Of a stretch of DNA of 59,297 nucleotides, positions 5,364 to 22,016 are shown one piece after another (positions within the stretch are counted from its first letter, which is position 1; each line of letters opens with the position of its first letter). The notes under the pieces are model-generated. The model made no database searches, had not been told where the DNA came from, and was given only the letters and a program-made list of their open reading frames with translations. The DNA lies in IMG/VR virus record IMGVR_UViG_3300045988_117970; one strand, given 5' to 3'. This stretch comes from a virus. The position numbers were made by a program, and so were the translations under genes.

Positions 5364-5810
5364 TTAATTAAAAGGCAATTCTTCATCAATTCCATCCGGG
5401 ATCTGCATAAATCCATCCTTATCAGTTGGCATTGATGGCGGTGGCTGCTGCCGGCTTCCGGCACTGGTCTGCGAATTATTCTGGCTCGCTGTTTTGCTCT
5501 CTGCAAACTCCTGATCTTCCACAACAATCTCTGTCGTATATACCTTTTGTCCTTCCCGATTGGTGTAGCTTCCAGTCTGGATTCTACCTGTGACTACGAC
5601 TTTGGTTCCCTGTCTCAGATACTTTTCCGCAAATTCTCCGCCTTTTCCAAACGCAACACAGGCAATGAAGTCCGCAGACGCTTCATTGTCCTTATGAAAT
5701 CTTCGATCAACCGCCAAAGTATATCTCGCTATCGCAAGCGCATTTTCGCCAGAAGAATACCGGACCTCTGGATCTCTGGTAAGTCGTCCCATCAAAATAA
5801 CTTTATTCAT
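5364..5810 (-). CDS. ssb: Single-stranded DNA-binding protein
   Basis: MNKVILMGRLTRDPEVRY OB-fold N-terminus; acidic C-terminal tail DGIDEELPF. Confidence 0.9.
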   Translation of the reverse strand: MNKVILMGRLTRDPEVRYSSGENALAIARYTLAVDRRFHKDNEASADFIACVAFGKGGEFAEKYLRQGTKVVVTGRIQTGSYTNREGQKVYTTEIVVEDQEFAESKTASQNNSQTSAGSRQQPPPSMPTDKDGFMQIPDGIDEELPFN

Positions 5811-11320: not shown

Positions 11321-11365
11321 GCTCGTATCCTCCTTGTAAAAGCTCTCTTGTTTTTATCTGTCTCT

Positions 11366-11394
11366 ATTCTAGCTTACATATGTAAGTTTGTCAA
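11366..11394 (-). promoter_or_regulatory. Early promoter P2 (near-consensus) with an operator
   Basis: Minus strand TTGACA (11394-11389), 17-nt spacer, TAGAAT (11371-11366). Operator TTACATATGTAA at 11374-11385. Confidence 0.7.
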
Positions 11395-11478
11395 TACTTT
11401 TCACATACTTTTTTAAGTTATTTTTGTGAATTTACTTACATTTGTTGGTCGCGCAAGCATAGCAAATACAGCCTGCAT

Positions 11479-12317: not shown

Positions 12318-12607
12318 ACTGCCTCCCCATGCCGGTGAACCGCATATACAATAACCTGATTCGCTTTCCCGGTGATTCTCTCAAATTCTTCATCGTCCAT
12401 TGGTATCATGTAGAGCTGCACAGCAGCCAGCACATCTCCTGAATATATCTTGCATCCGTAGAGAACGTGCTGCGCTCCGGTTTCTTTCAACAGCTTCGCC
12501 GCTTTCTTTCCTCGTTCAACAAGGATCGCCTGTGCAGCTTTTACGCTTGATACGCACCGCCCAATTACCCGGTGATCTTCATAAAACTGCATTGAAACCT
12601 GTGCCAT
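12314..12607 (-). CDS. Hypothetical protein (first gene after P3)
   Basis: 97-aa ORF with a GGGAGGG RBS. Confidence 0.6.
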   Translation of the reverse strand: MAQVSMQFYEDHRVIGRCVSSVKAAQAILVERGKKAAKLLKETGAQHVLYGCKIYSGDVLAAVQLYMIPMDDEEFERITGKANQVIVYAVHRHGEAV

Positions 12608-12642
12608 TTTCTGTACCCTCCCTTCTGTTTTTATCTGTCTCT

Positions 12643-12671
12643 ACTCTAGCATACATTTGTAAGTTTGTAAA
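12643..12671 (-). promoter_or_regulatory. Early promoter P3 with an operator
   Basis: Minus strand TTTACA (12671-12666), 17-nt spacer, TAGAGT (12648-12643). Operator ATACATTTGTAA at 12651-12662. Confidence 0.6.
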
Positions 12672-12712
12672 TAGAAATAACTTACTTTTGTGATTTATTT
12701 TTGATTATTTAC

Positions 12713-12883
12713 TTACAAAGATAAGTTGATGTCCTTGTCGGTATCTGTACCTGTTTCTGTATCTGTGACCGTATCTGTATCTGTATCTGTTTCCGTATCC
12801 GTATCGGGTTTTTTGGGTTTTCTAAAATATCCCAGAAAACCGAGTGGTTTTTCAATCGCATAAATCATACCGTCCGGTTTTTC
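12713..12883 (-). other. In-frame 56-codon extension after the TAA stop of ORF 12884-13312
   Basis: Reads EKPDGMIYAIEKPLGFLGYFRKPKKPDTDTETDTDTDTVTDTETGTDTDKDINLSL, then TAA at 12713-12715. Confidence 0.6.
12741..12848. repeat. Tandem GTATCT-like hexamers plus flank; copy 1 of a dispersed repeat
   Basis: About 11 tandem hexamers. 12789-12848 matches 16421-16487 apart from one extra hexamer and a few substitutions. Confidence 0.8.
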
Positions 12884-13312
12884 TTATCCAACTTCCTGCA
12901 AGGTCAGCAAATAGCTTTTCTCTGGTATATTTACTGCTTTCGGTATATCGTTGCCACTGCCAGTAGACACCTGTGCTGTAGCTGCGCCACAGTCCGCAGG
13001 AACGCTCTTTTCTGCATTTGTGGTCTCTAATACCCCTTCAATCTTCTTCGCTCCCTTTCGTGGCCTGCCGCCTTTCATGCCGTTCTTTCTGTTCTGCTCG
13101 CAGCGACGCTCATATTTCTCGCAGTCATAATCCATCTGCTGTCTGATAAACAGAAACGCAATCTGCTCCATACCACTAAGGTTCTTCGGTTCCTCACCAT
13201 TCTTATAATTCACCAACGCTTTAAATAATCTGCCTGCCTCACTGTCGGTCAGTGCGTTGACCTGTTCCGCATAGCTGCCATAAATCTTGAAAGCGCTTTT
13301 CTTATCTACCAT
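12884..13312 (-). CDS. Paralog of the N-terminal domain of replication protein 51263-51949
   Basis: KSAFKIYGSYAEQVNALTDSEAGRLFKAL...NRKNGMKGGRPRK aligns by eye with KKAFYLYNDYIDHVKLMSDEDAGKLFKAI...NRANGMKGGRPRK. Confidence 0.65.
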   Translation of the reverse strand: MVDKKSAFKIYGSYAEQVNALTDSEAGRLFKALVNYKNGEEPKNLSGMEQIAFLFIRQQMDYDCEKYERRCEQNRKNGMKGGRPRKGAKKIEGVLETTNAEKSVPADCGAATAQVSTGSGNDIPKAVNIPEKSYLLTLQEVG

Positions 13313-13521
13313 CAGCCCATCTCCTTTCCGCTCTGCATTTTTTCATAGGCCTGCGCCGCTGCTGCCACAAATTCCTGCTGATCTGATTCGCAGAATGTAT
13401 CATAAATGCACCAAACCAGATCCTGAACACCAAACATCTTTACCATAGCCCCCAGCACACACTCTGCGCCCTCCGGGCTCTTCATCAACATTTCCAGCAT
13501 CCTTTGTCTCCTTTCAATCAA
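13312..13521 (-). CDS. Hypothetical protein
   Basis: 69-aa ORF with overlapping start and stop. Confidence 0.5.
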   Translation of the reverse strand: MIERRQRMLEMLMKSPEGAECVLGAMVKMFGVQDLVWCIYDTFCESDQQEFVAAAAQAYEKMQSGKEMG

Positions 13522-13787
13522 GCAATTCTGTCTTTATGCTTGCTAAAGTCAATGCTTTCTTTATCCCATCCCCAATTCGCTTTTTCTCTTTCACGAATAT
13601 ATTCCTGCTGCACCAAAATTTCTGTCATCACCTGATTTATAATGCTTTCGCCAGCAACTCCCTTAATCTCCTCGTAAATCCCTGTCGCCACAAGGTACAT
13701 CATGTTGTCAAGTGACTTCTGGTTGTTTCTGTATTTTTCTCTTGTCTGTGCTACTGTAATTGTATTCAGTGATTCTGGCTTTTTCAT
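13518..13787 (-). CDS. Hypothetical protein
   Basis: 89-aa ORF. Confidence 0.5.
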   Translation of the reverse strand: MKKPESLNTITVAQTREKYRNNQKSLDNMMYLVATGIYEEIKGVAGESIINQVMTEILVQQEYIREREKANWGWDKESIDFSKHKDRIA

Positions 13788-13806
13788 TGTTCGCAGTCCC
13801 CTTTCT

Positions 13807-14001
13807 TTATCGCAAAATTGTTACCTTGCACTTGTTGCAAGCTCCATCTAAATCCGCTTCTACCATTTTTTCCGCAGCGTACCCAAGAATCTGATCCTGA
13901 AACCAATTACCTTTAGCCAGTAATGCGCCATCTTTGTAAATCTTAATCTCCGTTCTATCATTGACCGCTGCAATAACCTGTCTCATTGTCATAACTGCCA
14001 T
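13807..14001 (-). CDS. Hypothetical protein
   Basis: 64-aa ORF. Confidence 0.5.
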   Translation of the reverse strand: MAVMTMRQVIAAVNDRTEIKIYKDGALLAKGNWFQDQILGYAAEKMVEADLDGACNKCKVTILR

Positions 14002-14357
14002 TGCTGACTCCTTTCTGAGAAGCAGCTCTTACCTGCCTCTCCAACCTTTCTTGCACTTACTTTCTTCATAGCCTTGTAAATCATCTCGTCGCTTACGTCT
14101 CTATGAATTTTGCTCCAAAGCATGTATACCATTTCAAATACTGTTTCGTCGCTTCCCTCATACATTACAGTAACGCAATACTCTCTGCCTGATTCCTCGA
14201 TAGCTTCAACCTCCTGCGTACCGGTCAGTGAAAAGCAATGTGACACTCCAAACTCATTGAGCATTTCATCTAATTTCTCCAGCTTTTCTTCTGTGCATTC
14301 CTGCACGCCCTCACGGTTTGTAATATTTAAGTAGCAATCATAAATTTTTAACTTCAT
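13989..14357 (-). CDS. Hypothetical protein
   Basis: GGAGGG RBS before the ATG at 14357 (MKLKIYDCYLN...). Confidence 0.55.
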   Translation of the reverse strand: MKLKIYDCYLNITNREGVQECTEEKLEKLDEMLNEFGVSHCFSLTGTQEVEAIEESGREYCVTVMYEGSDETVFEMVYMLWSKIHRDVSDEMIYKAMKKVSARKVGEAGKSCFSERSQQWQL

Positions 14358-14470
14358 GTTTATGCCCTCCATTTCTTTTTCCTTATGTCTCTACTCTACA
14401 CTAGATTGAGTGCCGAGTCCATAGGTGACATGCACAAAGTTAAGTGTCTAAACTTGTCAAAATTATACAC

Positions 14471-14499
14471 TTGTTTGAGTGCATATTTTGTGTTAGAAT
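14471..14499 (+). promoter_or_regulatory. Promoter of the plus-strand accessory cassette
   Basis: TTGTTT (14471-14476), 17-nt spacer, TAGAAT (14494-14499), with an extended -10 TGTTAGAAT. Confidence 0.55.
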
Positions 14500-14547
14500 C
14501 TGTAGTATAGAAAAGTCATTCATTCACATTGAAGGGAGAAAATCACC

Positions 14548-14775
14548 ATGATAAGCTATCAGAAACTTTTTGATAAATTGAAAGAAGAAGGCTGGTCTTT
14601 CTACCGGGTGCGCCAAGAGAAACTGATCGGACAGGGAACTCTTACCCGCCTGCGGAACCAGTCCGGCGGACTTGACAGCAAGACTCTGAATAAAATCTGT
14701 CGGACATTTAATTGCCAGCCCGGGGATCTTATGGAATATATTCCAGACGAAGGCAGCGAATCTGATTCAGAATAA
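14548..14775 (+). CDS. XRE/Cro-type HTH DNA-binding protein
   Basis: 75 aa; GQGTLTRLRNQSGGLDSKTLNKICRTFNCQPGDLMEY is a typical HTH_26-like pattern; GGGAGA RBS. Confidence 0.7.
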   Translation: MISYQKLFDKLKEEGWSFYRVRQEKLIGQGTLTRLRNQSGGLDSKTLNKICRTFNCQPGDLMEYIPDEGSESDSE

Positions 14776-14853
14776 TATGCGCTTTTCTCCTTGTAGAGTT
14801 TCTGTTTTTGGGATATGATGATAGAAAAAGTGAACTCACAAAGGAGAGAGTGT

Positions 14854-15495
14854 ATGAAAAAAATATCACATTTTATTTTACCCCCCCCCCGGAAATTTTT
14901 GCACAATTCTCTGAATATAGCAAAAATTTCCTTATTTCTCTGTTTTGCTGGCTGTTCAACGGTATCTGCTGAACCCGCCACTGAAATATCCCAGATTGAT
15001 TCCTTCCGAGGGTATGACTGGGGAACAACATTTGACGATATAAAGGGCAAAGAAATCACATCAGATATGCTGGAATACAGAGATTATAGAATTGATGAAG
15101 TAGGAAGCGTGGATGGGCTTACAGACCTGTGCATATACAATGGTTCTGTGGATACATATGATACCAACGTCGAATATCTGTTTCTGAACGATAAGTTGGT
15201 ATCTGGCGGATATGATATGGATATTGACGATTCCAATTATGAGGATATATGCGATGGAATCTCGGAAAAGTATGGAGATCCAGATATTGAGAAATCGTCA
15301 ACCGGTTGGGGCGACTGCTCTATGTGGATTGACGATAGTCAGAATGTGATTCTTGTCTCAGAAATGTTAGGACTCTTGTACTTCCAGAATGATAAATCCA
15401 TAATAGATCTATTTTCGGAAAGTTTGGAGAAATTCCACGAAATTGATATTGATAGAGAATTACAGAAAGCCGGTGATGGATATGTCGGATATTAA
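14854..15495 (+). CDS. Putative secreted lipoprotein
   Basis: AAAGGAGAG RBS; MKKISHFILPPPRKF...ISLFLCFAGC has a lipobox-like FAGC. C10 tract at 14881-14890. Confidence 0.6.
   Translation: MKKISHFILPPPRKFLHNSLNIAKISLFLCFAGCSTVSAEPATEISQIDSFRGYDWGTTFDDIKGKEITSDMLEYRDYRIDEVGSVDGLTDLCIYNGSVDTYDTNVEYLFLNDKLVSGGYDMDIDDSNYEDICDGISEKYGDPDIEKSSTGWGDCSMWIDDSQNVILVSEMLGLLYFQNDKSIIDLFSESLEKFHEIDIDRELQKAGDGYVGY
14881..14890 (+). repeat. Poly-C (C10) homopolymer inside the lipoprotein signal-peptide region
   Basis: Ten consecutive C, encoding PPP(R). Confidence 0.95.
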
Positions 15496-16393
15496 GCTCT
15501 TTTCCGTCCACCCAGAGGTCCGGCAAATGGTCGCTTCCGAAGTGCTTCTCGAAAGAGATTTGCAGACTTTGATTGAAAATAACATGGACGCATTCTTTGG
15601 TGTGCGTTTCCTGAAAAGTGAATACGTCATTACCAATGGCAGAATGGACAGTATCGGCATTGATGAAAATAATTGCCCGGTCATATTTGAATATAAGCGA
15701 AGCAGCAATGAAAATGTCATAAATCAGGGGCTTTTCTATTTGGACTGGCTGCTGGATCACAAGGCAGATTTTCAGCTCCTTGTTGCGGATATTCTCGGAC
15801 AGGACACGGCCACTTCCATAGACTGGTCAATGCCATGCGTGATCTGTATCGCAAGCGGCTTCACGAAATATGATCTCCATGCAGTAAATCAAATGCAGCG
15901 CAATATTAAATTGGTGCGGTACCAGAAATACGGAAATGATCTGGTTCTGTTTGAACATCTGAATGCTCCTGCTGTGCCGCCTATTCCGGTCAACAATTCG
16001 GATTTTCCGAACAGTTCCGCTATCAAGAAGTCCGGCGATCAGAAAACACATCTGGAAAAGCTGTCTGCCGCGCCGCGCGAATTGCAAGATATATACCACT
16101 CTCTTTGCGACTACATAGAATCTCTCGGGGACGATATTGTTCCTAACCAGTTAAAATTATATCTCGCATACCGCAAGACAAAGAATATTATCTGTATTGA
16201 GATTTTTAGGAAAATGATTCTGCTGCACCTTAAAATAAATCCAGATGATATAGAGCTGGAAGATGGATTTACCAGAGATATGAGAAACATCGGACATTAT
16301 GGAACCGGCGACCTGCAGGTTACGATCAGGACGGCAAGGGACTATGAAAAGGCAAAGCTACTTTTAAATCTGGCGTATAATGCAGCTCAATAA
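15476..16393 (+). CDS. PD-(D/E)xK (NucS/RecB-like) nuclease-fold protein with a DUF5655-like C-terminal domain
   Basis: GRMDSIGIDENNCPVIFEYKR (D...ExK) and C-terminal RDMRNIGHYGTGDLQV motif. The start overlaps the lipoprotein stop. Confidence 0.6.
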   Translation: MDMSDIKLFSVHPEVRQMVASEVLLERDLQTLIENNMDAFFGVRFLKSEYVITNGRMDSIGIDENNCPVIFEYKRSSNENVINQGLFYLDWLLDHKADFQLLVADILGQDTATSIDWSMPCVICIASGFTKYDLHAVNQMQRNIKLVRYQKYGNDLVLFEHLNAPAVPPIPVNNSDFPNSSAIKKSGDQKTHLEKLSAAPRELQDIYHSLCDYIESLGDDIVPNQLKLYLAYRKTKNIICIEIFRKMILLHLKINPDDIELEDGFTRDMRNIGHYGTGDLQVTIRTARDYEKAKLLLNLAYNAAQ

Positions 16394-16490
16394 TTGATTT
16401 CCGTACCTGTATCCTTATCCGTTTCCGTATCCGTATCTGTATCGGGTTTTTTGGGTTTTTTGAATTATCCCAGAAAACCGAACGGTTATC
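16394..16490. repeat. Copy 2 of the Asp-Thr-repeat-coding segment (gene remnant)
   Basis: The minus strand reads PFGFLG-TAA-FKKPKKPDTDTDTETDKDTGTEINY, preceded by stops. It is homologous to 12741-12848. Confidence 0.8.
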
Positions 16491-16495
16491 ACAAC

Positions 16496-16530
16496 GTCAA
16501 AAAGCCCCGGAAGCACATTGCCTCCGGGGG
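16496..16530. terminator. Bidirectional intrinsic terminator (endolysin operon / plus-strand cassette)
   Basis: CCCCGGAAG...CTCCGGGG hairpin flanked by A5 and T5 runs. Confidence 0.7.
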
Positions 16531-16540
16531 TACATTTTTC

Positions 16541-18103
16541 TCACTGGACATATTTTTTCTTTTTGTAATACGCCGCAATCCAGCCAGACGGAATCCGCAT
16601 CCAGATATTTCCTGCACTGTCATTTTTGATTTCAAGACAGGAAACTTCTGTTCCCTTTTTCAGTTCGCCGGTTGTGTACGCATGTTTTCTGGCATTTTCA
16701 GTGAGGTCCTGCCATTTCTTTGCGGAATAATCTGTGCCAGCCCCCTTGCGGACTCTCAGATTATCTACCGCAGTAGTATAAACCTTTCCGACGGTATATG
16801 TAGGAGCCTTGCTGGCTGAACTTCCAGTGCCGGAAGTCTTTGCATTATGCAGCGCAACCAGTTTTGCTTTTGAAGCTGGGCCGTATTTTCCATCAACTTC
16901 AAGACCGTTTGCTTTCTGGAACTTTTTGAGTGCTTTATCTGTATTGGTTCCGAAATCTCCATCCGCTCCGGCAGTTCCGCAGGAATATCCGAGATCAATC
17001 AACATGAACTGCATAGTTTTGACTGCTGCCCCTGTGTCGCCTTTCATCAGATAATTTCTTTCGGCGTTCTGTGCAGTTTCTCCGCCGGTATATCTCAGAA
17101 CGTGAGTCCAAGGATAATTCCTGTAACTACGGATCAGGAACTCCTTACCAGTCTGATCCCCCGGTCGTCCGCCATGCGCCGTTCCTTTTTCGTTGATAGA
17201 AGCCTCAACCTCTTTACCATTTCCACAGTACATAGCAACATGATAAATCTCATTTAAAAGGACGTCGCTTCGTTCCAGTCCCTCTCCGGTTGCAAGGTTG
17301 ACTTTTGCTGTAATATCTTCAAAGCCATTTTTCAGGAACACCGGTCTCATATTCCCGGTATATGTGGCTCCTTTTGTTTTTACTGGAACTCCTGCCTGTT
17401 CCCACGCTTCAATCGTAGCGGAAGAACAGTCATAATCCGGTCCCCATCTATTGTCCTGATCGTATCCATGACTATTATCATTCGCCGTGTTCTCCATCCA
17501 CGAAATGGCGCTCTCTTTCTTCTGCTGTACTTCCGACACTTTCTTTTCCCCTTTCGCATAACTGTCATAAAACTTCTGTCCTCTGGCAGCTCTACCAGCA
17601 CACACGCTCTCTCTCGTATTTGCCGGAATCTCGAACTTTTTCAGAACAATGTCCGACGCTTCACGAATTGAGGTGGCTGTCTTCAGCACCTTCAAGACAG
17701 ATCCGTAGCTCTCCTGTAATTCTTTCAGCAGGTATTCAATCTGCATATCTTCATTGGCAATGGATACGCCTTTCTGCTTTGCCAGATTCCACAGTCCTGC
17801 TTTTCGTCCCGGGCTTGTCCACTGCGCCAGACCATATCCATACTGCTTGCCAGCCAGCGGGTGAAGAAATTCTTCGCAAGAGATTTTTCCATTGTCAACC
17901 GCTGCTGTATAGGTTTCATGCGTATAGACCTTTCCAACTTCTTTCAGTCTGTTCAGACACAGATACTCTACTCTGTTCGGGTAAAAGCCATCACTTTCCG
18001 CTTCCAGATTTCCGATCAGTCCGCAAGCCCCAGCCGGTGTCATGCCTGCCTGAATAAATTTCTTATAAGCTCTTTTCTCTGCTTCAAAGTTAATCGTCGT
18101 CAT
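16541..18103 (-). CDS. Multidomain endolysin
   Basis: N-terminal lysozyme-like domain (GYGLAQWTSPGRK), central NlpC/P60- or amidase-like domain, PG_binding_1-like repeat (GDFGTNTDKALKKFQKANGLEVDG), C-terminal SH3-like domain. Confidence 0.85.
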   Translation of the reverse strand: MTTINFEAEKRAYKKFIQAGMTPAGACGLIGNLEAESDGFYPNRVEYLCLNRLKEVGKVYTHETYTAAVDNGKISCEEFLHPLAGKQYGYGLAQWTSPGRKAGLWNLAKQKGVSIANEDMQIEYLLKELQESYGSVLKVLKTATSIREASDIVLKKFEIPANTRESVCAGRAARGQKFYDSYAKGEKKVSEVQQKKESAISWMENTANDNSHGYDQDNRWGPDYDCSSATIEAWEQAGVPVKTKGATYTGNMRPVFLKNGFEDITAKVNLATGEGLERSDVLLNEIYHVAMYCGNGKEVEASINEKGTAHGGRPGDQTGKEFLIRSYRNYPWTHVLRYTGGETAQNAERNYLMKGDTGAAVKTMQFMLIDLGYSCGTAGADGDFGTNTDKALKKFQKANGLEVDGKYGPASKAKLVALHNAKTSGTGSSASKAPTYTVGKVYTTAVDNLRVRKGAGTDYSAKKWQDLTENARKHAYTTGELKKGTEVSCLEIKNDSAGNIWMRIPSGWIAAYYKKKKYVQ

Positions 18104-18230
18104 CTTCTACTCCTTTCCTCCCATAAGGGCATACATCATCTATAAATCGTCCGAACTCCCGGACAAATAAAAAAGCGGCACCGCCTCCAAGAGCCAGCAC
18201 CACCAGAATAATCATTGCAAGTGTTTTCAT
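18090..18230 (-). CDS. Small single-pass membrane protein (46 aa) in the lysis cassette
   Basis: Hand-translated MKTLAMIILVVLALGGGAAFLFVREFGRFIDDVCPYGRKGVEDDDD. Its 3' end overlaps the endolysin start. Confidence 0.45.
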   Translation of the reverse strand: MKTLAMIILVVLALGGGAAFLFVREFGRFIDDVCPYGRKGVEDDDD

Positions 18231-19205: not shown

Positions 19206-19639
19206 TTCTTCCTCCAGAAATAATAATGCGGCTTTTCTTCCCCAAACATGTTATATCTCAATTCGTCGTCCAGTACGATTGCCACCCCTGACAGGAAAAA
19301 CCACAGGCATGAAAATGGCAAGCAGATCTGCCCCCACAAATTCAGCGGCATATTGCTGTAGTCCCAGATATTCAGACCAAGCCACATATTCAGAACAATG
19401 CCTGCAATCAGTTCTGTGCCGGTAATAATCAGGCAGCCAATCAACATCTGCAACGGAAATGGCATATCCCATCCGATATGCTCATTCAAAAGCCCACACA
19501 TAACGAAGCAGAAGCCCCCGACGGCAAACATCGTCCAGTGCGTATGCCCTCTAAAAAGCAATTCAAAAAGGCAATAAAGAAGTCCTCCTATCGCCCACAG
19601 ATACATGGTCTTATACAACTTCTTCAGAAATAACTTCAT
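19202..19639 (-). CDS. Polytopic membrane protein (resembles the family annotated as putative ABC-transporter type IV)
   Basis: 145 aa with 4 predicted TM helices. Confidence 0.55.
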   Translation of the reverse strand: MKLFLKKLYKTMYLWAIGGLLYCLFELLFRGHTHWTMFAVGGFCFVMCGLLNEHIGWDMPFPLQMLIGCLIITGTELIAGIVLNMWLGLNIWDYSNMPLNLWGQICLPFSCLWFFLSGVAIVLDDELRYNMFGEEKPHYYFWRKK

Positions 19640-20313
19640 TTTACCTCCGCCTCCTTCAAATATTCTTTCAGAACTTCCGACTGATACTCTCCCGGAATTT
19701 CATCGCCGTACTGGATTGCTTCAATCTCGGAAGCTTTCGTACATGATTTTACCCAGTCATACATACTATTGCAGTAGGTGGTCTGGACAGACACATGCTC
19801 CATCGCAGCCTTTACGACAAGCCCCATTTCTTCGGCAGTATAGAACTTGCATGGATTGCCGTCATTGTGGTATTCGCATTTTTCAGCGCCGGCGTTGAGC
19901 TGAGCCTGTTTACCAAAGAGATTGAGCTGATCGTGAATAGTCAGGCTGAAATGCTGCGTTTCTTCCCCAATTATAACGTCGATGCCGGAAACAATTTTTT
20001 CTTCACACGCTGCTGATACTTCCGACAACTTTGCAGCTCTTCTTGCTTCAATCCCAAGTTCATTTGCATCTAAGTCGGGAATCTGTTCCAACATAGAAAA
20101 CCAGAAACCAAAATCAGCAGCAATTTCCTTTTCTGAAATCACTGCTGCATCTACCCTACAAAAAATCTCGTCAGCCTCATATCCTGTCGGGCCATCTTCT
20201 ATTTCCTGTACAATTTCATGCTGGTTGTTCCTGAGCCACACATCTGCTACGCCATTCGGCTTTGCCTTGTACACTACCTTTTCCATTTTTTCGGGACTTT
20301 GAACCTTGTGCAT
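19636..20313 (-). CDS. Tail-fibre-associated protein (XkdW/DUF4376-like, tentative)
   Basis: GGAGG RBS before the ATG at 20313. Located after the fibre gene and the DGR. Confidence 0.5.
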   Translation of the reverse strand: MHKVQSPEKMEKVVYKAKPNGVADVWLRNNQHEIVQEIEDGPTGYEADEIFCRVDAAVISEKEIAADFGFWFSMLEQIPDLDANELGIEARRAAKLSEVSAACEEKIVSGIDVIIGEETQHFSLTIHDQLNLFGKQAQLNAGAEKCEYHNDGNPCKFYTAEEMGLVVKAAMEHVSVQTTYCNSMYDWVKSCTKASEIEAIQYGDEIPGEYQSEVLKEYLKEAEVK

Positions 20314-21721
20314 AATATCGCCTCCACATATTGAAATATTTTTTCTCAACATAGCCATTTCCTTTGTCGTAATCGCTTGCTATTTTCCTTGCGATCCGCA
20401 TAAGTTCATCTACCTTGTTTCTGATCCGGTATTTCACCATATTGGTATTTTTGAACCAGCCATATGCAGATATGACTGATCTCACAAATTTGATTTTTAC
20501 AGTAACATGGTGTTTTACCAGCTTCAGAAATTTATTCATCTTCCGTCGTGCGGTAAGAAAAATGTTCCTGCGGATTGTTACCCATACTTTCTTGTGCTTT
20601 TTCTGTCTCCCAAAATATGACTTCGTTTCTACATCTCCGCCATGAAACCGAAATCCCATGAAATCCAGTAGGGCACCCTTTGTTTTTCCGACCTGATCCT
20701 CATACATGGTTTTCTGCATAATCCAGTCCGGCTTGATTCTCAGGTCAAGGAAATTCAACATGTAGGCAATCATCATTTTAACTGCCTGCTTCAAATGGGT
20801 TTTATTTGCTGCATACATTGTTATGTCGTCCATATAGAAAATGATATGTGAGATTAACCTTTTGATTTTCGTCTGCCCTCTCCGGCAGGTTTCTTTAACC
20901 AGTCGCTCGCTTGCATAATGATAAGCGTATGAGAGAAAATAATTGCATAAATCCTTTGATACAGGAGAGCCTATCAGAATACCTCTGTCCGGTGCCAACG
21001 CTTCCGGTGACGGCCATTCCTCATATAACTCAATAAATACAGTAAACAGATATAGTAGCTCGTCCGATTTGTGCAGATCTCTTTTCAGCAGCTCCAATAG
21101 TTTTCCATGCCGGATTGACGGATAGCATTTCTTCACGTCCGCCTTTGCACTATATCTTGTACCCTCAACATCATTAGAGAGCCAACGCAGGACTGCTTTC
21201 TTGCCATAGTTCTGGCCTCTTCCTTTGATGGAAGCACACTGGTATGTTCCAAGCTTTGCTTTGAACAACGGCTCTGCCGCCTTTGCTGCAACCTGCTCAT
21301 ATAGGCGAAACAATATCGTTTCAAGCCCAAGCATACGTTCCTTTCCACTTCCCGGGTCGTTGATCTTTGTATAACGGATCAATGGCTGTCCGTAAGTGTT
21401 CGCCAGCAAATGTTCTCTAACGGTTCTGGTGCGGATATGATACGCCATTTCCAACGCCAGCTTGTAATGCGCCGCCCTCCAGAAATCATTCTCAGGAAGA
21501 TTGCCAACACTCAGTGCCGCAAACTCTTTACGGTCTACCGGCTCTAGGTTCGTCAGTTGCGGTTTTAGATACTGTTTTACATACTCCCGGCTTTCCCCGG
21601 TATAGCAGGCAAAGAACTTCACAGAGCTATTCTTTCTGTATTTATCGTGCATATAATCTGTGATTACGTCGTAAATTCTATCTGCGTCCGAAACCACAAG
21701 TCTCTTGCAATATGTTTTCAT
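20216..21721 (-). CDS. DGR-type reverse transcriptase
   Basis: Motifs ADVKKCYPSI, GILIGSPVSKDLCNYFL, IIFYMDDITMYA, LDFMGFRF. The start is probably the ATG at 21721 (MKTYCKRL); the track start at 21814 adds a Cys/Trp-rich leader. Confidence 0.85.
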   Translation of the reverse strand: MKTYCKRLVVSDADRIYDVITDYMHDKYRKNSSVKFFACYTGESREYVKQYLKPQLTNLEPVDRKEFAALSVGNLPENDFWRAAHYKLALEMAYHIRTRTVREHLLANTYGQPLIRYTKINDPGSGKERMLGLETILFRLYEQVAAKAAEPLFKAKLGTYQCASIKGRGQNYGKKAVLRWLSNDVEGTRYSAKADVKKCYPSIRHGKLLELLKRDLHKSDELLYLFTVFIELYEEWPSPEALAPDRGILIGSPVSKDLCNYFLSYAYHYASERLVKETCRRGQTKIKRLISHIIFYMDDITMYAANKTHLKQAVKMMIAYMLNFLDLRIKPDWIMQKTMYEDQVGKTKGALLDFMGFRFHGGDVETKSYFGRQKKHKKVWVTIRRNIFLTARRKMNKFLKLVKHHVTVKIKFVRSVISAYGWFKNTNMVKYRIRNKVDELMRIARKIASDYDKGNGYVEKKYFNMWRRYYAQGSKSRKNGKGSVQGKAEWRSRCVAQEQPA

Positions 21722-22016
21722 GTTTCTCTTTCTTTCTGCTTCAAGGACGTTCGGGTTTACTACTAGCCCCCATCTGTGTCCACTTCCGCCACAGAGCCAG
21801 AGACATGTTGCCATGCCTCCGGTGCTGGTTCGTCAATTTCGGGCATTCCGCCCCAGCTCTTTCGGGGTTCCCTTTAAGGGAACGAAATACAGCACATCTA
21901 AGTTATGCAGAAATTCGAGCGGCATAGTTCCAGTTCCAGTTGGAAAGCCCATTGTTCAGGTTCGCATTCCGACGGCCGTCAATCGTGCCATTGTTCAGGT
22001 TGCCCGAGCCAAGAAC
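21722..22016 (-). ncRNA. DGR template RNA (TR plus structured spacer)
   Basis: Non-coding. Spacer hairpin GTTCCC-TTAAA-GGGAAC (21867-21883) and a CCCC...GGGG stem (21851-21867). Confidence 0.6.
21903..22016 (-). repeat. DGR template repeat (TR)
   Basis: Matches 22155-22268 at an offset of 252 bp. In the target frame it reads VLGSGNLNNGTIDGRRNANLNNGLSNWNWNYAARISA, with 10 AAY codons. Confidence 0.85.

Follow-up and report, generated by a model that had tools for sequence, protein, structure and literature searches.

A prophage locus encoding a helix-turn-helix protein, a candidate lipoprotein and a PDC-S18 nuclease is probably a composite moron site

A three-gene locus lies on the plus strand at positions 14373-16540 of a 59,297-nt stretch of temperate phage or prophage DNA (IMG/VR record IMGVR_UViG_3300045988_117970; hereafter the window). 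It encodes a small helix-turn-helix (HTH) protein, a candidate lipoprotein and a nuclease, and a preliminary description had presented it as a self-contained three-gene cassette. Our analysis favors another reading: the locus is probably a composite prophage moron site built of separable modules, rather than a single three-component machine. The three genes differ in distribution and in history, and the co-conservation that a self-contained system implies is absent outside one phage lineage in our survey of homologue loci. By sequence, the nuclease is a full-length member of PDC-S18, a family catalogued in PADLOC as a single-gene ‘phage defence candidate’, and the most sensible guess at what the locus does is defence or exclusion.

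Three real genes with separate histories

As the preliminary description stated, three open reading frames (ORFs) occupy the plus strand of the locus, antisense to both neighbors; on the left, a minus-strand gene (13989-14372) starts at the border, and on the right the border is the stop of the minus-strand endolysin gene (16541-18103). The HTH gene (14548-14775; 75 amino acids, aa) is followed by the lipoprotein candidate gene (14854-15495; 213 aa counted from MKKISH) and the nuclease gene (15476-16393; 305 aa). The last two overlap, also as described, by a conserved 20 nt, or by 14 nt should translation begin at the second ATG. Purifying selection acts on all three, which are therefore real genes: the median pairwise ratios of nonsynonymous to synonymous divergence (dN/dS) across eight related loci are 0.07 for the HTH gene, 0.15 for the lipoprotein gene and 0.06 for the nuclease gene.

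The complete trio is restricted to a single Lachnospiraceae prophage lineage (the window and the homologue loci L012-16, L023-25 and L048-50), and each gene is found separately elsewhere. Near-identical cassettes are present in three IMG/VR contigs and three genome assemblies; one of these assemblies, that of the cultured human-gut isolate Jingyaoa shaoxingensis NSJ-46 (Lachnospiraceae), has 90% nucleotide identity over 5.7 kb. L050 (contig CAVIGE010000061.1), which has the trio, carries the bin label ‘Prevotella sp. CAG:279’. Every other host belongs to the Lachnospiraceae (Jingyaoa, Blautia), and L050 is probably a mis-binned phage contig. Lipoprotein and nuclease genes without an HTH gene are found in L001-6. 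A lone lipoprotein gene lies beside the endolysin gene of L011, which belongs to the same phage family (lipoprotein 65% and endolysin 88% identical); L019-22 also have a lone lipoprotein gene, and in L017 and L018 the gene stands behind an unrelated one of 146 aa.

Divergence and decay within the trio point in the same direction. Between the window and L012, synonymous divergence (dS) is 1.29 for the HTH gene and 1.18 for the lipoprotein gene but 0.44 for the nuclease gene, about a three-fold difference between adjacent genes, so the histories of these neighbors have been separated by recombination. The lipoproteins of L001 and of family member P0132 have internal deletions, and the adjacent L001 nuclease gene is intact. 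Homology of L001 to the window starts at the last ~10 nt of the HTH gene. Since a promoter-like site (P2), the lipoprotein-nuclease pair and a 3’ repeat element, all described below, are shared with L001, which has no HTH gene, the transferable cargo extends roughly from 14766 to 16490.

These data bear directly on the possibility that the three proteins form an integrated anti-phage or exclusion system with interdependent parts. One such system would have a lipoprotein that senses entry or blocks it, a nuclease to destroy any DNA that still gets in, and a dedicated regulator over both. The order, spacing and overlap of the trio are kept throughout its lineage, and the pair transfers jointly. 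However, each of the three genes occurs without the others, the lipoprotein decays beside an intact nuclease, and the dS values of adjacent genes differ; direct contact is also unlikely between an extracytoplasmic lipoprotein and a nuclease that lacks any membrane or signal segment. We therefore regard an integrated system as distinctly unlikely. We give an equally small chance to a narrower version, in which the lipoprotein and the nuclease are a true functional pair, possibly joined by the HTH protein in a regulated trio. A two-layer barrier of surface block and intracellular cleavage would then be delivered through conserved translational coupling, one promoter for both genes and the common 3’ repeat, or the lipoprotein could instead condition the activity of the nuclease. 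If such a pair exists, gut Lachnospiraceae prophages would have a mobile exclusion cassette of two genes that has not been described before.

The nuclease is a PDC-S18 protein

PDC-S18 membership is indicated by a PADLOC hidden Markov model (HMM), PDLC04946, that matches residues 2-303 of the 305 (E=3.4e-130), with a second model, PDLC04945, at E=2.2e-65. The preliminary description did not recognize the three genes as a named system; the trio as such is indeed unnamed, but its nuclease alone belongs to a listed family. The D...ExK core and DUF5655-like C terminus given in that description were read correctly, in that the quoted motifs are present and Pfam scores NucS_C at 27.8 bits and DUF5655 at 24.2 bits, with a cut-off of 24 for each. 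The protein divides into a NucS/RecB-like PD-(D/E)xK domain (residues 1-161), a flexible linker (162-190) and the DUF5655 domain (191-305). In an alignment of 82 diverse homologues, E49, D58, E72, K74, Q84 and Y88 are nearly invariant and make up a complete RecB/NucS-type PD-(D/E)xK set; DUF5655 is present in all 82.

The AlphaFold2 model of the nuclease has a mean predicted local distance difference test (pLDDT) score of 90.4, with low confidence in the linker and an alpha/beta C-terminal domain. In Foldseek searches the N-terminal domain matched EndoMS (5gke, E=1.2e-5; 2vld also at about 1e-5), SduA (8ps5, E=4e-3) and the FokI cleavage domain. The C-terminal domain gave weak matches alone, the best being E. 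coli YjbR (2fki, E=0.14, TM-score 0.55). A profile of the nuclease family searched against PDB sequences found nothing below E=0.19, with PDB NucS at E=0.42. For the YjbR ‘double-wing’ fold, DNA binding has been predicted, and its structure is related to that of McrB-N, a domain that reads 5-methylcytosine (PMC7641849, PMC3424535).

The nearest solved folds are thus mismatch endonucleases of the EndoMS/NucS type, and public annotations label relatives of the window protein ‘endonuclease NucS’. Both facts would fit a nuclease that serves DNA metabolism, as a repair or recombination endonuclease of phage or host within a locus of miscellaneous cargo, as would the unremarkable metabolic genes that neighbor homologues in Blautia and Staphylococcus. 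The resemblance, however, stops at the catalytic domain. Matches to the NCBIfam NucS equivalogs are confined to the catalytic core and reach 22.6 and 15.3 bits where 216 and 252 are required, which rules out a NucS orthologue. The N-terminal DNA-binding and dimerization domain of NucS is missing without replacement, and a DUF5655 domain has been added. Moreover, the distribution is patchy and on mobile elements (prophages, plasmids and type I restriction-modification, R-M, operons), and the window gene is antisense to the phage replication and lytic operons. A function in DNA metabolism therefore seems very improbable, and the housekeeping-family identity that the preliminary description had allowed for is not borne out.

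Two defence families were also considered. Membership of Shedu was ruled out, as no Shedu model is among the PADLOC matches at E<=0.1 and there is no Pfam SduA_C match; SduA_C appears weakly (E>=0.013) in 6 of the 82 homologues. PDC-S11 (Madara) was likewise rejected, its HMM covering residues 6-92 alone (E=0.0077) in a protein whose C-terminal domain is DUF5655.

The nuclease family is very large and its genes mostly stand alone; it has at least 7999 clusters at 90% identity (all but one of the 8000 candidates scored reached E<=0.001) and 2709 representatives at 50% identity under the same threshold. A tblastn search of phage records with the window protein matched only three, all unannotated. 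Homologues follow directly on type I R-M genes in two viral contigs (L026, L028), lie antisense between a lysin-like gene and serine recombinases in two other loci (L027, L031), have a CI-like repressor on one side and an integrase on the other in L029 and come after an unrelated XRE gene in L030. They are carried on Staphylococcus and Acinetobacter plasmids, the order on the A. baumannii plasmid pABA-1fe1 being hsdM-hsdS-DUF5655-hsdR, and a homologue stands alone in Blautia hydrogenotrophica chromosomes. COG3586, which may be the same family as the window nuclease, has been described as a putative endonuclease encoded next to a cluster of type I R-M genes (PMC1189080). The lipoprotein partner is confined to close relatives. 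Judged by gene neighborhood, these contexts are those expected of an autonomous defence gene.

The same contexts argue against a toxin-antitoxin or addiction module, in which the nuclease would be the toxin, the HTH protein its antitoxin or repressor, and the prophage would be stabilized. Small XRE-type HTH antitoxins paired with nuclease toxins do exist, and the HTH protein has a weak PADLOC match to AbiEi (E=0.0016). The nuclease, however, is overwhelmingly found with no adjacent HTH gene, and in the window the lipoprotein gene sits between the two. We consider such a module extremely improbable.

Compared with known systems, the window nuclease differs in no structural respect from PDC-S18, sharing the full-length HMM match, the NucS_C plus DUF5655 architecture and the occurrence as a stand-alone gene and at type I R-M and prophage sites; the window copy is prophage-borne and lies downstream of, and overlaps, the lipoprotein gene. 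With NucS/EndoMS and SduA it has in common the catalytic fold and the D...ExK...QxxxY motifs. Madara (PDC-S11) joins a NucS-like nuclease to an EVE-like domain (bioRxiv 10.64898/2026.09.05.749240), and END nucleases join one to an EndoIII-like domain (PMC12191111); both act against phages in a modification-dependent manner. Like them, the window protein is a single polypeptide with an N-terminal NucS-like nuclease, a linker and a putative C-terminal DNA-recognition domain, but this last domain is DUF5655 (weakly YjbR-like) rather than EVE-like or EndoIII-like. By analogy, the window nuclease could be a modification-dependent (type IV) restriction enzyme.

The candidate lipoprotein belongs to a small family

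The 213-aa protein has no match in Pfam, NCBIfam, PHROGs or PADLOC, and its family amounts to 22 clusters even after a profile search, with just three matches among 185,579 species genomes. A lipobox is present in the window protein (F-A-G-C34) and in its relatives (L-V-G-C, L-T-G-C, L-T-A-C), the cysteine at position 34 being conserved at 90% or more. The distant members P0133 and P0140 retain the lipobox, and the P0134/P0139 branch has an ordinary signal peptide. An extracytoplasmic location is therefore the conserved feature of the family; the protein is predicted to be extracytoplasmic and probably a lipoprotein, with an acidic mature part of ~180 aa. The AlphaFold2 model (pLDDT 59.7) suggests two alpha-beta3 repeats. 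Foldseek searches with this low-scoring model found no match at E<0.01 in the PDB or BFVD, only non-significant ones that were BLIP/BamE-like or labelled ‘lipoprotein’. A dN/dS of 0.15 led us to reject positive selection across the lipoprotein gene.

The gene recurs antisense beside the endolysin gene in several Lachnospiraceae prophage lineages, each time in different company, and on that ground we propose a surface-level function for the lysogen. Its location, its position and its narrow, fast-evolving distribution make superinfection exclusion the most likely function. Lipoproteins of the Ltp type are known from Gram-positive prophages. The window protein resembles them in being a probable lipoprotein encoded by a prophage of a Gram-positive host, but it has no sequence or fold similarity to the Ltp, Llp or Cor types, as far as its low-confidence model allows comparison.

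The equivalent site in relatives behaves as a hotspot for small cargo. A SocA_Panacea-domain gene pair (7200-8065 in L021/L019) adjoins the solo lipoprotein gene, and DUF4160-type gene pairs (L001 4077-4617; L041 3122-3771) lie near the lipoprotein-nuclease pair and, once, directly upstream of an HTH homologue.

The HTH protein and its operator-like boxes form a probable portable switch

The 75-aa protein is a Cro/C1-type (XRE) HTH protein, as the preliminary description held (Pfam HTH_26, PF13443, E=4.2e-14, 53 bits against a cut-off of 22), and is a probable repressor or autoregulator. Upstream of its gene are features that the first reading of this DNA overlooked, namely three operator-like boxes of the form CAC-N8-GTG, as it also overlooked P2 and the repeat element between the nuclease stop and the terminator. 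The boxes, at 14399-14412 (CACTAGATTGAGTG), 14433-14446 (CACAAAGTTAAGTG) and 14468-14481 (CACTTGTTTGAGTG), are spaced 34-35 bp apart in a divergent promoter region. The pattern CACWWNNTTNAGTG has three matches in the 59 kb, which are the three boxes, where 0.2 would be expected, although this count is circular in that the pattern was derived in this analysis. In an alignment of upstream regions, the CAC and GTG columns are invariant in nine loci from different elements that share solely the HTH gene.

Two of the boxes coincide with promoter-like sites. The third overlaps the -35 hexamer of P1 (14471..14499, plus strand), the site preceding the HTH gene, which reads TTGTTT (14471-14476), 17 nt, TAGAAT (14494-14499), with an extended -10 in which TG stands at 14491-14492 (TGTG before TAGAAT). 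This is the promoter proposed for the locus in the preliminary description. It is literally present and conserved, being almost invariant in relatives whose lipoprotein is just 52% identical, with GTGTTAGAAT unchanged in L012 and L016; but it scores 8/12, below the 9/12 that a generic promoter scan needs. The first box occupies the spacer of a candidate minus-strand promoter read by eye at 14393..14421 (TGGACT, 17 nt, TAGAGT). Its -10 and leader resemble repeated promoter elements at 11349-11440 and 12626-12717, a repeat family that carries TCTCTACTCTAG, and with low confidence we assign it to the divergent minus-strand operon.

P2, the promoter-like site of the lipoprotein gene (14791..14819, plus strand), reads TTGTAG (14791-14796), 17 nt, TATGAT (14814-14819) and is kept in the window, L012 and L016 as well as in L001. 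A generic terminator scan found no terminator-like site in the gap between the HTH and lipoprotein genes, and therefore read-through from P1 is also possible.

HTH relatives (63-73% identity) in other viral contigs have unrelated genes downstream, or nothing, and often stand back to back with an operon, close to an integrase or next to an endolysin. Since these relatives retain the three boxes whether their cargo is different or lacking, the HTH gene and its putative operators are a portable switch that is not bound to the present cargo. One could go further and regard the HTH protein as no more than a secondary switch of the phage for its divergent minus-strand operon (14372 to 12884), with unrelated cargo expressed from P2 alone. 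The free association of the three-box module with other genes would agree, as would the conservation of P2 and its sufficiency in L001, and L011, which has neither the HTH gene nor divergent genes of the window type. The gap free of terminator-like sites, however, makes co-transcription likely. This proposal, which differs from a composite moron site in degree only, strikes us as unlikely.

In phage lambda, cI-rexA-rexB joins exclusion genes to a repressor, and other repressor-linked prophage exclusion genes are known. The window locus resembles cI-rexAB in having accessory genes downstream of a small repressor-type HTH gene, multiple operators, divergent promoters and an orientation antisense to the lytic genes; it differs in that the main CI/Cro/integrase module of the window phage is elsewhere, at 54-58 kb.

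A repeat element and a predicted terminator close the locus

Between the nuclease gene and the right border, 16398..16487 holds about seven hexamers (TCCGTA / GTATCY) and then a GGGTTTTTTGGG...CCCAGAAAACC hairpin, which folds at -19.4 kcal/mol (z -2.2). A second copy of the element at 12741-12849 is ~82% identical; each copy has 7-11 GTATCY hexamers, and together they bracket a 3.6-kb block formed by the DUF6291 operon and the entire cassette. In all loci that have the lipoprotein-nuclease pair, the element lies 3’ of the nuclease gene; L001, which is not phage DNA, is among them. Scanning 11-17 kb against Rfam yielded no credible match, and no family for the element. The idea that the element is a small ORF with a (DT)n tail was rejected, because the 16398-16487 copy lacks a start codon and is interrupted by an in-frame stop; on the minus strand, the 12741-12849 copy allows a 51-aa ORF with a (DT)n end.

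Next to it, the terminator scan and folding identified a G+C-rich hairpin at 16505..16529 that is common to the converging cassette and endolysin transcripts, and which the preliminary description called a bidirectional terminator. It was called as a terminator on the minus strand alone, with 11 pairs, a CUUUUUG tail and a fold of -22.3 kcal/mol (z -4.1). The plus-strand fold reaches -18.3 kcal/mol (z -2.1); it contains an A.C mismatch, and its U-run begins 5 nt past the stem. It is thus a canonical terminator for the endolysin strand and a plausible but weaker one for the cassette strand.

How a composite site might work

As a composite moron site, the locus would combine two modules. In the first, the HTH protein and the three operators between divergent promoters would supply portable regulation: the protein would bind the boxes, repressing its own promoter through the one over the -35 hexamer and the divergent minus-strand operon through the one inside the promoter spacer, and plus-strand transcription would be held at a controlled level in the lysogen, as for lambda cI-rexAB. 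The second would be a two-gene cargo with its own promoter. Its first product may be a fast-evolving, membrane-anchored extracytoplasmic lipoprotein acting for the lysogen at the cell surface; its second, translationally overlapped, would be a cytoplasmic stand-alone PDC-S18 nuclease with an intact catalytic set. The DUF5655 domain, in the model a weakly ‘double-wing’-like DNA-binding fold held on a flexible linker, could recognize a feature of incoming DNA (a modification, a structure or a sequence), and the nuclease domain would then cut the DNA so recognized, to the presumed protection of the lysogen. This recognize-then-cut logic would be that of single-chain restriction enzymes such as the NucS-like Madara and END nucleases. 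The preliminary description regarded the position and orientation as typical of prophage genes expressed in the lysogen, and in this it agrees with what we find: the locus is antisense, and the window has a lysogeny module (a CI-like repressor, Cro-like HTH proteins and a large serine recombinase/integrase) at 54.2-57.8 kb.

Several points weigh against this interpretation or against parts of it. The conserved 20-nt overlap would also fit a functional partnership of lipoprotein and nuclease, as would the fact that the pair has moved outside phage DNA along with its promoter and 3’ repeat. The ‘defence’ label rests on guilt by association, because no experimental study of PDC-S18, nor any of the DUF5655/NucS family in connection with anti-phage terms, was found in the searchable literature; other PDC-S candidates tested elsewhere have given mixed results. 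The YjbR fold match of the C-terminal domain is statistically non-significant. The lipoprotein, whose model is of low confidence, shows no similarity to known exclusion proteins in PHROGs, Pfam, PADLOC or Foldseek searches. The lipoprotein prediction of the preliminary description holds as regards the conserved lipobox cysteine, but the sequence departs from a strict PROSITE-type rule at K24 and C30, and the assignment rests on inspection. Finally, both lysogen expression and operator binding are predictions.

What is new here is modest: a prophage-borne copy of PDC-S18, an uncharacterized lipoprotein and a conserved operator set. Current views are not overturned, and the locus is a routine, if well-documented, example of accessory and defence cargo carried by prophages. 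Nevertheless, a PDC-S18 gene in a lysogen-type prophage position of the cultured isolate J. shaoxingensis NSJ-46 offers a concrete system for testing the family, and the analysis yields a structural hypothesis of DUF5655 as a DNA-recognition domain tethered to a nuclease. The locus also illustrates how a moron site is put together from modules that move on their own, here a repressor with three operators, a lipoprotein and a nuclease.

Genomic setting

The window phage has its holin and endolysin genes at 16.5-18.5 kb, and a long region (0.3-14.4 kb) is transcribed leftward and encodes single-stranded DNA-binding (SSB), PAPS-reductase-like, DUF2786/DUF7168, DUF1281_C and DUF6291 proteins. A megablast search of 12500-18200 against GenBank phages gave no match. 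Within the leftward region, the minus strand encodes a PAPS-reductase-domain protein at 1096-2121 and the SSB at 5364-5810; this pair of genes supports an early or DNA-metabolism region, although it lies downstream of the lysis genes. A promoter/5’-leader repeat of ~92 nt, 83% identical, precedes three successive minus-strand operons (11349-11440, 12626-12717 and a partial copy at 14373-14407). Its palindromic motifs, TGTAAGT/ACTTACA, are unlike the CAC-N8-GTG boxes, and the sharing of this leader suggests that a common regulator may serve the early-type region.

On the other side of the lysis genes, just downstream of tail-fibre-like genes, a minus-strand reverse transcriptase (20216-21814; RVT_1, E=3e-14) adjoins a DUF4376 protein (19636-20358). 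The same arrangement is present in the relatives L011 and L012, and the region 19636-21814 is probably a diversity-generating retroelement, which we put forward as a candidate.

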